64,000 nt of DNA from an uncultured Dehalococcoidia bacterium (GCA_951813535.1 OX638345.1:2823158-2887157), one strand, 5' to 3'; positions 4,363 through 63,261 are shown, counted from the stretch's first letter. Notes: a model not told the origin generated them from the sequence alone. Program-made: numbers and translations.

Positions 4363-4706
4363 GACGCCACTGAGGCTGACACGGGGTTGCCAAAATCCTG
4401 GCTCGAATGCCTGAGTTAGAATCAAAAAAGTGGCCGAGCACCTCCCGTTGGCTGCAGCCTGGGGGCATATCGTCGGGATTGGCTCAGGCCAGGCACTCCC
4501 ACGGCACTCGCGGGACATCGCTTACCGTTGCTGCCGTCAAGCCCTGGCGGAGTTCGCGAGCCTGCGCCGCGTGGGACCCGGCCGTCAGCGCCATTCCCTG
4601 GGAAATTGGCCCTTGCGCCTTGCCGAGGGGAGGAATTCCACCCCGCTGTGGCGGGTTGCGGGTTCAGGGCACCGCCAGCTCCCCGTGTAGCACGACCACT
4701 CCAAAC

Positions 4707-23390: not shown

Positions 23391-24080
23391 ATGCAGACGA
23401 CCGTAGAATTCGACCCCAGTTATTCCCTGCTCACCATCGACCTCGCATCCGGCGAATCCATCAAGGCAGAGCCGGGGGCCATGGTCGCCCAGCAGGGAGT
23501 TGCAATGACCACCGGCATGAGCGGCTCCGGTGGTCTCTTTGGCGGAATCCGCCGCATGATGGGCGGCGAATCCTTTTTCGTAAACACCTTTACCGCTGAA
23601 GGCGCTGGTGGTTGGGTCAGTCTGGCCCCGCCGGCGCCCGGAGACGTCGGTTCGTTCACCCTGGAGCCGGGCACCAACCTTTTCTTGCAGTCCAGTTCGT
23701 TTCTGGCCAGCACCGGCAACGTGCAGATCGACAGCCAGTTCCAGGGATTTCGCGGGTTTTTCAGCGGAGAGAGCCTGTTCTTCATCCGCGCCTACACACA
23801 ACAGGGCCCGGGCACCGTTTATTACAACTCCTACGGCGCCATCAAAAAGGTGGCGGTGAATCCAGGCCAGGAGTTAGTGGTCGATACCGGGCACCTCGTG
23901 GCCTTCAGCGATGACGTCGAATACTCCATTGGGAAAGTCGGCGGCATCCGCTCATTGATCGCCGGCGGTGAAGGGCTCGTGATGAAGTTCCAGGGCAGCG
24001 GAACCGTGTGGATCCAGACCCGCAACCTCGCTTCCCTGGCCGAAAAGCTGAACCCGTTCCTGCCAAAACGGGGCCAGTAA
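23391..24080 (+). CDS. TIGR00266/AIM24 (DUF124) family protein
   Basis: GESFFVNTF, GESLFFIRA, VVDTGHLVAF and GEGLVMKFQGSGTVWIQTRN pattern. Confidence 0.8.
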   Translation: MQTTVEFDPSYSLLTIDLASGESIKAEPGAMVAQQGVAMTTGMSGSGGLFGGIRRMMGGESFFVNTFTAEGAGGWVSLAPPAPGDVGSFTLEPGTNLFLQSSSFLASTGNVQIDSQFQGFRGFFSGESLFFIRAYTQQGPGTVYYNSYGAIKKVAVNPGQELVVDTGHLVAFSDDVEYSIGKVGGIRSLIAGGEGLVMKFQGSGTVWIQTRNLASLAEKLNPFLPKRGQ

Positions 24081-60808: not shown

Positions 60809-61636
60809 TTATTCGTCGCGGATGCGGTTGTACATGGCGAGGGGAGTGGCGGCGAGGAGGCCGGCGTCTACGGGCAGGACGACCCCGGACACCCAGCGCG
60901 CCTCGTCGCTGGCGAGGAACAGGGCGGCGTAGGCGATGTCCCAGGCGTTGCCCTCGACTCCCAGGGGGCCGGCCTTGCGGCGATTTTCGCGGGTTTCTTC
61001 GGCCATGGCGCCGGCGACCATGGGAGTGTAGATGTGGCCCGGGGCAATTACATTCACGCGGATGTTGTCGCGGCCCAGGTGGACCGCCATCGTCTCCGAC
61101 ATGCCGATGACGCCGGACTTGGATGCAGAATAGGGGATACTGGCAAGACCGCTTCCGGCGCGGACGCCGGCAATGGACGACATGTTGATGATGCTGCCGC
61201 CGCCGGCGTCGATCATCTTGGGCGCAGCGTACTTGGTGGTGAGCATCATGCTCTTGAGGTTCACATCGAGGACGTTGTCCCAGACACTCTCCTCCACATC
61301 GGTGGGCGTGCCGGGGCCGGTGATGCCGACGTTATTGAAGAGCACGTGCAGGCCACCGTAACGGTCTACGGCGGCGGCGACTATGGCCTCACAGTCGGCG
61401 CCGGAGGTGACGTCGGCAGCGATTACGGACGCCTCTCCGCCCTCCTCATGGATGACGGCAAGGGTCTCTTCGGCGGCCTGAAGGTTGCGATCGACCAGCA
61501 GCACGCGAGCGCCCTCTCGGGCGAACAGAATTGATGCAGCCTTGCCGGTGCCAACACCGGGGCCACTGGAGCCGGCGCCGGTAACAATGGCGACTTTATC
61601 CTGCAGACGGGGTCGTCCGGATGGAAGGAGTGTCAT
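60809..61636 (-). CDS. SDR family oxidoreductase
   Basis: TGAGSSGPGVGTG, NNVG and YSASK motifs. Confidence 0.88.
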   Translation of the reverse strand: MTLLPSGRPRLQDKVAIVTGAGSSGPGVGTGKAASILFAREGARVLLVDRNLQAAEETLAVIHEEGGEASVIAADVTSGADCEAIVAAAVDRYGGLHVLFNNVGITGPGTPTDVEESVWDNVLDVNLKSMMLTTKYAAPKMIDAGGGSIINMSSIAGVRAGSGLASIPYSASKSGVIGMSETMAVHLGRDNIRVNVIAPGHIYTPMVAGAMAEETRENRRKAGPLGVEGNAWDIAYAALFLASDEARWVSGVVLPVDAGLLAATPLAMYNRIRDE

Positions 61637-61667
61637 GGGAACCTCCGATAATTTGTCGGGCGAATGA

Positions 61668-62234
61668 TCAGGAGGCGAGCGCAGGCTGTGGAGTGAGGAG
61701 CCAGTCCTGGGCCTGCTTGGCGGCGTCCGAGAGCCACTGGCCCATGATCGCCTCGCGCCCCTCGGGGATTTCGACTCCCAGGCCGTCAGCCAGGCGGTTC
61801 ATGAAGTTGAACACACAGGTGATGGCGACGGTGGACAGCACCTGCTGATCGGTGAGGCCCGTGGCACGCAGGCCGTCAATATCGGACTCCCGCATTAGAG
61901 CCGGGGTCAGGGTGAGTTTGACCGCGTAGTCGAGGATGGCGCGGGTCTGCGGGTCTAGGTCAGCCTGGGTGTAATCGTGGATGATGTGGCTGGAGTACTC
62001 GGGATCGTCAGAGTGTTGACGGAGGAACCCTCCGTGGGCCACGGCTCAATAACGGCAGCGGTTGACGAGGGACACCACCGTGGCGATGGCCTCTTCCTGG
62101 GTGCGGGTGAGCACTGAGGAACCGAAAGTGGCATTGGCGTTGAGGTTCTGCACAGCCGCCATCAGGTCCGGATTGATGGACATGCATTTGATAACCGCAG
62201 GCACCGCGGCGTCGGTTTCGCGGATCCAGGACAT
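61668..62234 (-). CDS. AhpD/carboxymuconolactone-decarboxylase-family peroxidase-related protein, candidate selenoprotein (TGA 62046-62048 read as Sec, C-R-Y-U motif)
   Basis: ATG 62234 lies 5 nt after AGGAGG. The translation reads ...EEAIATVVSLVNRCRY-[TGA]-AVAHGGFLRQ..., which matches the VSxxNxCxYCxxxH core of the family with the second Cys replaced by TGA. The track ORFs 62046..62234 and 61668..62042 share a frame. Confidence 0.78.
62019..62035 (-). promoter_or_regulatory. SECIS-like hairpin 10 nt downstream of the TGA
   Basis: mRNA ACGGAGG-GUU-CCUCCGU: a perfect 7-bp stem with a GUU loop. Confidence 0.5.
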
Positions 62235-62276
62235 GAGGACCTCCTATAGGGATGCGCAGGGCTAATGCCCCAGCCA

Positions 62277-62675
62277 TCAGCTGCCGGTTGGGGTCTGGGT
62301 TACGATGGCCATCTTATGTTCAGCAGTCCCGAGCAACAGACCGCCGTGGTGAACCTCCACCTCGAAACGGAGCTTGTTGCCGGACACGTCGGTGAGAACG
62401 GAGCGCGCGGTGGCGACCGCACCGGCATCCGCCGGGGCCAAATGTTTGACGTTGACCTCGTAGCCGACGACCGTTTGATCCGGATGGAGCAGAGACAGGA
62501 CAGCTTGGTACGAGGCCTGCTCCATGAGCATGACCATTGCCGGGGTGCTGAACTTGGGAGTATGGGGAGCCAGGTGTTCAGCGGCGACGGTCAATTGAGT
62601 TTCGCCTGCCAGACCGGGCCGGATGGCCGGGTCTATGGGCAGGCGAGACGGTTGCGAGGTACCCGGAGTCGCCAT
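62277..62675 (-). CDS. hotdog-fold thioesterase (FlK-like)
   Basis: FSTPAMVMLMEQASYQAV and VGYEVNVKHLAPA motifs. ATG at 62675 lies 25 nt after the upstream stop. Confidence 0.72.
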   Translation of the reverse strand: MATPGTSQPSRLPIDPAIRPGLAGETQLTVAAEHLAPHTPKFSTPAMVMLMEQASYQAVLSLLHPDQTVVGYEVNVKHLAPADAGAVATARSVLTDVSGNKLRFEVEVHHGGLLLGTAEHKMAIVTQTPTGS

Positions 62676-62700
62676 GGCGGCGGCCCGGAAACGCGGTTGT

Positions 62701-63261
62701 TTAGGCGGCCACGGGCTGGCCGACCAGGATGGACTCCACCTCGTCGGCGATCTCGGCGGCGCGGGCCTTGACCTCATCGTCGTTGAGGCTGGACAGGGGA
62801 TGCTGCGCGACCACATAACGATAGTCGGGCACACCCATCATGCGGGTCATGGCCTGGGCAGTGTTGAGGAAAACGTGGGTGATGATGGCCGCGGTTGGGA
62901 CGCCGCGCTTCTCGAAATCGATGCCGTCGTGCACACTGCACGAGCTGCAGGACCCTCAATCCCCGACCCCGGTGATGAGGTAGTCGACCTCACCGAGGAT
63001 GGAGTCGATGGTGTCCTGCTTGGCCGGCAGGCTGGCGTGACCCTTGTCGTAGTACTTGATCTCGGAGAAACCGTGGCGTTCGTTGAGGATGTTGCCGAGT
63101 TCATGAAGGAGCTTGTCCGCGTTGGCCTTGGAGTTTTCCATGAGGCCGAGGCGCTTCCCGGCGAGGCCGGCAGAGCGGTCGTTCATGTGGAACTCGGACT
63201 GGGGCAACTCGGTGCCCCTGGGGTTGACGAGCCTGAGGCGGCTCGATTCGGCGGTTGTCAT
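62701..63261 (-). CDS. UGSC-motif protein, candidate selenoprotein (TGA 62956-62958 read as Sec, U-G-S-C-S-S-C)
   Basis: ATG 63261 lies 6 nt after GGAGG. The translation reads ...EVDYLITGVGD-[TGA]-GSCSSCSVHDGIDFEKRGVPTAAIITHVF.... The track ORFs 62956..63261 and 62701..62934 share a frame. UxxCxxC resembles the GrdB-type redox motif (from memory). Confidence 0.7.
62927..62943 (-). promoter_or_regulatory. SECIS-like hairpin 12 nt downstream of the TGA
   Basis: mRNA UCGUGCA-GUG-UGCACGA: a perfect 7-bp stem with a GUG loop. Confidence 0.5.

Follow-up and report, generated by a model that had tools for sequence, protein, structure and literature searches.

We analyzed a window of 64,000 nucleotides from the genome of an uncultured bacterium (GCA_951813535.1 OX638345.1:2823158-2887157), the source organism being a SAR202-type Dehalococcoidia bacterium. 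The minus strand of this window carries a cluster of four genes (60809-63261), which encode, in order of transcription, a UGSC-family protein, a small thioesterase-like protein, an AhpD-like protein, and an SDR-family oxidoreductase (Table 1). The AhpD-like gene is continuous; its translation (MSWIRETD...VVSLVNRCRY*AVAHGGFLRQHSDD...PALAS*) contains one internal TGA in addition to the terminal TGA. Its N-terminus follows the pattern M-S/P/A-W-I that is common to the orthologues, in agreement with the chosen ATG. The spacer between the internal TGA and the downstream hairpin, ACGGAGG-GUU-CCUCCGU, is 10 nt long, and this hairpin, with its perfect 7-bp stem and 3-nt loop, is the minimum-free-energy structure of the region. 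A sequence-only reading of the same DNA had described a TGA within VVSLVNRCRY-TGA-AVAHGGFLR, an AGGAGG ahead of the ATG, and a perfect 17-nt hairpin starting 10 nt after the TGA; every element that it described is present in the sequence, on the minus strand, which it had left unstated, and its observation is thereby confirmed.

Table 1. Positions of the AhpD-like gene, its sequence elements, and the neighboring genes of the cluster, counted from the first letter of the window.
Feature	Position	Strand	Details and evidence
AhpD-like (TIGR01926 / COG2128) predicted selenoprotein CDS, complete	61668..62234	-	188 residues including predicted Sec63, plus stop; translation, TIGR01926 score, PDB alignments
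Start ATG of AhpD-like gene	62234..62232	-	Sequence reading
Shine-Dalgarno AGGAGG	62240..62245	-	5 nt 5' of ATG; sequence reading
TGC, Cys60, first residue of the C-x-x-U redox motif	62055..62057	-	Cys in this column in 82/82 orthologues
In-frame TGA, predicted Sec63, aligned to second Cys of C-x-x-C homologues	62046..62048	-	Conservation and homologue alignment
SECIS-type hairpin ACGGAGG/CCUCCGU, 7-bp stem, GUU loop	62019..62035	-	Overlaps codons His67-Gly-Gly-Phe-Leu-Arg72; folding, consensus structure, covariation, synonymous freeze, Gly-clade decay
Terminal stop TGA of AhpD-like gene	61670..61668	-	Sequence reading
UGSC-family selenoprotein gene	62701..63261	-	~0.9 kb upstream of AhpD-like gene; NF041046 UGSC_fam 155.7 bits (cutoff 125)
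In-frame TGA of UGSC gene (...ITGVGD-U-GSCSSC...)	62958..62956	-	Translation
Hairpin of UGSC gene UCGUGCA-GUG-UGCACGA, 7-bp stem, GUG loop	62943..62927	-	12 nt after UGA; folding and hairpin scan
Gene for a small thioesterase-like protein with a hot-dog fold (4HBT/FlK type), flanked by the two selenoprotein genes	62277..62663	-	Start inferred from 128-aa orthologue
SDR-family oxidoreductase gene, last in the cluster	60809..61636	-	31 nt downstream of AhpD-like gene; NCBIfam and Pfam SDR matches

The joined product, encoded by one continuous gene, is a member of the AhpD/CMD family. In profile searches, run with Cys substituted at the TGA, it scored 129.8 bits against TIGR01926 ('peroxidase-related enzyme'; cutoff 81.8), with residues 7-154 of 188 covering profile positions 24-173 of 178, a match that crosses the TGA junction at residue 63. 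The AhpD core domain TIGR00778 (ahpD_dom) matched residues 41-79 (35.1 bits; cutoff 27.8), and PF02627 (CMD) matched residues 22-101 (37.1 bits; cutoff 23). Five homologues in the PDB (2PFX, 6K40, 2OYO, 3C1L, and 2PRR) aligned over approximately 145 residues without a break at the junction (E = 1e-22 to 2e-25). All five share N-x-C-x-Y-C-x-x-x-H-G, in which the second Cys falls on the window TGA, and most wider family representatives also have Cys in this column. The AhpD signature can be read directly from the window protein as E48-x11-C60-x-x-U63-x-x-x-H67. The earlier placement of the TGA at the second Cys of the CxxC motif in an AhpD/CMD-family protein, together with the profile check that it had proposed for the joined product, is thus borne out by the structural homologues and by TIGR01926 and PF02627, both above cutoff and aligned across residue 63.

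We investigated how widely the TGA is conserved. When one genome per GTDB species was scanned, 80 loci were recovered, all of them in metagenome-assembled genomes (MAGs) named Dehalococcoidia, SAR202, or Chloroflexota, several of which came from sponges. Identity of these loci to the window protein was 59-92% in the full alignment and 61-93% for the best segment in the scan. TGA occupied the predicted Sec codon in all 80 loci and in a further locus on a 2.4-Mb contig (L004), and none of the 82 genome-derived sequences lacks it. Scanning of metagenome contigs yielded 50 further sites with the TGA, at identities down to approximately 45%.

This conservation bears on the possibility that the TGA is a true stop, so that the locus would be a pseudogene, the product of a sequencing error, or two small genes of 62 and 124 aa. 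Gene callers do split the locus in this manner: public database homologues (P0001-P0120 and P0122-P0133) are mostly C-terminal fragments of 119-124 aa that start just after the TGA and are labelled hypothetical, as in MCH7712898.1, 'hypothetical protein [Chloroflexi bacterium]'. However, the TGA, the frame, and the flanking protein on both sides are conserved in approximately 130 independent assemblies, to approximately 45% identity, and a nonsense mutation would not last across 80 species. Moreover, both halves form one domain that aligns continuously to solved structures, and the downstream piece would have to begin 3 nt after the TGA without its own ribosome-binding site. We therefore consider a true stop scarcely credible.

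The hairpin was examined both as a single fold and in comparison across orthologues. Taken alone, the 17-mer folds at −9.8 kcal/mol (z = −3.07), and 1 of 200 shuffled sequences was equally good; this energy is modestly unusual and only suggestive. Within contexts of 34-67 nt around the hairpin, the folding energy was not unusual. Rfam scans of the window, at the gathering threshold and at E ≤ 10, returned no SECIS family, the matches otherwise being chance matches and a large SRP RNA. The latter, a bacterial large SRP RNA (RF01854) at positions 4434-4695 on the minus strand (138.7 bits), was the sole Rfam match in the window at the gathering threshold.

Comparative data were more informative. 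RNAalifold returned the hairpin as the only consensus structure in the alignment. In the codon alignment of 82 sequences, the six hairpin codons were nearly frozen: His67 was CAC in 82 of 82, Gly68 was GGA in 70 and GGG in 12, Gly69 was GGG and Phe70 was TTC in all 82, Leu71 was CTC in 78 and CTT in 4, and Arg72 was CGT in 78, CGC in 2, and CGG in 2. Conserved codons flanking the hairpin each used two to four synonymous forms. Mean normalized synonymous entropy was 0.089 in the six hairpin codons versus 0.673 in 74 other conserved codons, and none of 100,000 random six-codon sets had an entropy as low as that of the hairpin. The choice of codons also runs against the rest of the gene, which prefers GGC and CGC/CGG over the GGA, GGG, and CGT found in the hairpin.

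Base pairing was retained in 99.0% of cells (125 sequences, 115 of them distinct), compared with 45-59% in slid controls. The six inner pairs had no broken cells, their sole changes being to G-U (25 cells). At the loop-closing pair, the 115 distinct sequences had G-C in 102, A-U in 8, and C-G in 5, amounting to 13 double-sided compensatory changes. Covariation was confined to this pair, the other six being invariant or changed only to G-U. The swaps were achieved through coupled codon changes, from GGG..TTC (Gly..Phe) to GAG..TTT (Glu..Phe) or GCG..TTG (Ala..Leu). Since GGF, GEF, and GAL all retain the pair, RNA pairing is kept at the expense of changes in the protein. On this comparative evidence, which goes beyond chance, the hairpin is shown to be under selection as an RNA structure.

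A natural contrast is provided by the nearest full-length relatives without the TGA, which have Gly, not Cys, at the Sec column. We found this Gly clade at 11 metagenome loci (in place of the Sec codon, ten have GGA/GGG and one has AGG) and at three others, the full set being L001-L003, L086-L094, L147, and L155. True GGA/GGG in the DNA rules out, for this one clade, that Gly at the Sec column is purely an artefact of gene calling with an alternative code. The clade retains the first Cys and nearly the same peptide, H(G/A)GFLR, but its codons vary (CAC/CAT, GGA/GGG/GGC/GGT/GCC/GCG, CTG/TTA/CTC, and CGT/CGC/CGG), and the stem has 1-3 mismatches, so that the hairpin is lost. Because a near-identical peptide is encoded there with a broken stem, the hairpin goes with the UGA rather than with the peptide. 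The sequence-only reading had proposed that the hairpin should be conserved wherever the TGA is, and this pattern holds, with pairing maintained alongside the TGA and decayed in the clade that lacks it.

These observations also weigh on a different explanation, namely that the hairpin is a by-product of the peptide HGGFLR and codon bias, with UGA reassigned genome-wide as in genetic code 4 or 25. In its favor, conservation extends to the peptide H-G-G-F-L-R, and some database entries translate the Sec site as G or W. On the other hand, free codon choice and a broken stem accompany nearly the same peptide in the Gly clade, the hairpin codons oppose the preference of the gene, and the coupled amino-acid changes preserve the closing pair. 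As for reassignment, the terminal stops of the 82 orthologues were TGA in 46, TAG in 23, and TAA in 13, and the window gene also ends in TGA; UGA therefore still works as a stop and has not been reassigned. The database entries with G or W resemble alternative-code gene calls. Specifically, a second group of entries comprises products of excessive length (238-486 aa) that show G in the Sec column; judging by this length, they are probably translations under genetic code 25 in which the terminal TGA was read through as well. A by-product of peptide and code is thus most improbable.

The second selenoprotein gene of the cluster lies upstream and belongs to the UGSC family. Its hairpin has the same build as that of the AhpD-like gene. 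In each of the 40 related loci where the UGSC gene occurs, the in-frame TGA is retained together with the hairpin; across 41 sequences, the stem shows a single change, from G-C to G-U. In a window-wide scan for TGAs flanked by coding-like sequence, only two sites were credible, those of the AhpD-like and UGSC genes; likewise, only these two TGAs in the window have a 7-bp hairpin with a GUN loop 8-15 nt downstream. A third TGA-hairpin candidate, at 23597, was a weak 6-bp match and was judged to be due to chance. The order UGSC, thioesterase, AhpD-like, SDR is kept in 39 of the 40 closest loci (L004 and L006-L044); the 40th lacks the thioesterase match only, and the position of the SDR gene is kept in all 40. 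The thioesterase orthologue in L004 and L005 matches PF22636 and PF03061. An exact look-up of the SDR protein from the window gave no record in the contig collection. Gaps around the AhpD-like gene in the cluster are 31-42 nt. The four-gene cluster is absent in the group of loci at 61-66% identity.

Another explanation accepts that the UGA is read through but assigns it a residue other than Sec: the hairpin would stimulate near-cognate insertion of, for example, Trp, Cys, or Arg via a standard tRNA. It draws on the search for Sec machinery, in which none was seen in the window or the fetched loci. ARAGORN identified no tRNA-Sec in the 64-kb window or in 165 fetched related loci (1.35 Mb), and a regular expression for the SelD active-site motif had no match over the same 1.35 Mb. 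For selA and selB, the check in the window covered the two candidate ORFs only, adjacent ORFs of 457 and 618 aa at 12-15 kb; both were rejected, the first having no Pfam match and the second a glycosyl hydrolase 88 domain. The hairpin is, in addition, very short and without an Rfam match, and Gly is tolerated at the Sec position in the sister clade. Yet the position of the UGA coincides exactly with that of the redox Cys in the solved structures, the classic Sec/Cys relationship. A stem-loop directly after the UGA, within the ORF, and with a small apical loop containing G is the wording used for bacterial selenoprotein genes (PMC1088965), and the position and loop of the hairpin fit this description. 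Furthermore, the adjoining UGSC gene, whose family has been described solely as (seleno)proteins, has the same hairpin design. In the literature, Dehalococcoidia MAGs appear among the bacteria rich in selenoproteins: BSepDB credits the related Dehalococcoidia bacterium UBA1141 (our locus L085) with 49 selenoprotein genes (PMC13326102). SelA and SelB are also reported as frequent in bins of sponge symbionts (PMC5649159). Sec decoding is thereby supported indirectly, by the adjoining selenoprotein gene, by the repertoire of UBA1141, and by the sponge-symbiont bins. We regard recoding to a residue other than Sec as quite improbable, if less so than the two explanations considered above.

We thus favor the reading that the gene encodes an AhpD-like TIGR01926 oxidoreductase whose UGA is read as Sec63 through a downstream hairpin that recruits SelB, and we assign it a probability of about 0.92. 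The earlier interpretation of the locus as an AhpD-like selenoprotein gene is accordingly supported. As we infer the mechanism, the UGA at codon 63 would not be read as a stop during translation; instead, the hairpin, with its 7-bp stem and small loop starting with G-U, would recruit SelB carrying Sec-tRNA(Sec), the Sec-decoding machinery of the source genome being assumed. Selenocysteine would then be inserted at codon 63, in place of the second Cys of CxxC. The resulting C-x-x-U pair is predicted to cycle between a selenenylsulfide and the reduced selenol/thiol, and the protein would reduce peroxides or the oxidized cysteines of a partner protein. By analogy with its homologues, the protein most likely acts as a selenol/thiol oxidoreductase that detoxifies peroxides or disulfides. 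In AhpD of Mycobacterium tuberculosis, the second Cys is the attacking nucleophile and the first is the resolving residue. For Deinococcus radiodurans DR1765 (6K40), the closest solved homologue and a Cys protein, the knockout is described as sensitive to H2O2 and as poorly complemented by versions in which the CxxC cysteines are mutated (PMC8945050, citing Zhao et al. 2020). Full H2O2 tolerance requires DR1765 and depends on its CxxC (PMC8945050).

The family to which the gene belongs is well described. AhpD-like proteins (COG2128, CxxU) entered the literature in 2005, when 27 sequences from the Sargasso Sea were presented as a new family of selenoproteins (PMC1088965); in the GOS data they were the fourth most abundant selenoproteins with 299 sequences, followed in fifth place by UGSC-containing proteins with 255 (PMC2398784). 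The AhpD-like family is listed in a 2022 review (PMC9312934), and 'AhpD-like protein, TIGR01926, CxxU' appears explicitly in a 2026 review (PMC13188914). The statement of the sequence-only reading that AhpD-like proteins are a recognized selenoprotein family in metagenomic surveys is confirmed (PMC1088965, PMC2398784, PMC13188914). The window gene shares with the AhpD-like 1 (COG2128/TIGR01926) family its HMM family, CxxU with Sec in the second position, a hairpin with a small G-containing loop after the UGA, and marine uncultured hosts, and we found no substantive difference. It is an ordinary member of the family in every feature that could be examined. In the literature on the family, we found no discussion of the operon partners seen here (UGSC, thioesterase, and SDR) or of the Dehalococcoidia host clade.

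Comparison with other known systems is consistent with this placement. DR1765 and the other solved proteins of TIGR01926 type (2PFX, 2OYO, 3C1L, and 2PRR) have N-x-C-x-Y-[C/U]-x-x-x-H-G in common with the window protein, but they have Cys instead of Sec, G-A-A-(V/L)-R after the His instead of G-G-F-L-R, and no hairpin. M. tuberculosis AhpD, the founding member, shares the signature E-x11-C-x-x-C-x-x-x-H but is only distantly related; DR1765 has 12% identity to it (PMC8945050). Its partners, AhpC and the lipoamide system, are known, whereas that of the window protein is only hypothesized. The 'hypothetical protein 1' of the Sargasso Sea (NF041238, AhpD_rel_CFYUT), an alkylhydroperoxidase-related selenoprotein, likewise has a CMD/AhpD-type domain and CxxU, but proteins of that family comprise approximately 357 residues compared with 188 here; membership of the window protein in it was ruled out (57.2 bits; cutoff 175). 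With regard to the RNA element, Liu and colleagues are said to have delimited, in 1998, a minimal SECIS of Escherichia coli fdhF, whose upper stem-loop measures 17 nt and lies at a distance of 11 nt from the UGA. The window hairpin resembles it in size, location within the coding sequence, spacing from the UGA, and the G-U of the apical loop, and differs in having a perfect 7-bp stem and a 3-nt loop without a bulged U; binding by SelB is predicted.

The gene leaves knowledge of selenoprotein families unchanged; its contribution is to correct an annotation and to provide a SECIS case study. Public gene callers routinely cut this gene in two or place G or W at the Sec site. Because AhpD-like genes are mis-called in this way, the antioxidant and selenium use of the abundant ocean- and sponge-associated Chloroflexota is under-reported. 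The locus is also a clean worked example of a minimal SECIS inside a conserved peptide, where RNA pairing and protein sequence co-evolve, with a natural control in the Gly clade, which lacks both the UGA and the hairpin.

The origin of the Gly clade was investigated with a neighbor-joining tree rooted on Cys-type family members (500 bootstraps), a tree with few outgroups and with saturated distances in some replicates. The clade grouped with the main Sec clade, leaving the Sec-bearing L149 and L158 outside, in 477 of 500 bootstraps, and a split uniting all Sec sequences apart from the Gly clade was found in 0 of 500. Gly codons elsewhere in the clade of the window gene are mostly GGC, compared with GGA/GGG only at the Gly-clade site. 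Its placement among Sec lineages and this restricted codon usage lead us to suggest, tentatively, that the clade arose by TGA-to-GGA (Sec-to-Gly) conversion. If so, a working one-Cys version of the enzyme, with C-x-x-G, is implied. Since Gly, not Cys, is found in the closest relatives without Sec, the second redox residue may be dispensable for some functions of the fold. A small gene lies directly 5' of the C-x-x-G gene in Gly-clade loci: the annotation of L001 (2634-2939) gives a CMD-family protein of 101 aa (PF02627), and in L089 (3484-3681) there is a 65-aa ORF that is CMD-like by eye only. Such a small CMD-type protein might supply the missing redox residue in trans to the C-x-x-G protein.

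A more ambitious reading is that in SAR202-type Dehalococcoidia the four genes form a dedicated redox module with two selenoproteins, in which the Trx-fold UxxC UGSC protein would specifically reduce the CxxU AhpD-like protein, and that, separately, the Gly clade converted its Sec codon to Gly (not Cys) under purifying selection. We consider this unlikely as it stands. As leads, the cluster with its two selenoproteins and the clade with its Sec-to-Gly change are nevertheless of modest interest.

Two minor features of the related loci were also recorded. The codon immediately 5' of the UGA (Tyr62, TAT, window 62049-62051) is TAT in 79 of 79 genome-derived orthologues that have Tyr there, the other three having Phe (TTT). 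TAC is favored at other Tyr positions of the AhpD-like gene, and TAC, TTT, and TTC precede the UGA in more distant metagenome sequences. The preference for TAT before the UGA may reflect an influence of codon context on whether Sec is inserted or translation terminates. Finally, two metagenome contigs, L130 (positions 2588 and 3278) and L153 (150 and 829), each carry two AhpD-like paralogues approximately 690 nt apart, and both paralogues in each contig have an in-frame TGA and a compensated variant of the hairpin (GAG..TTT, or a GTA loop).
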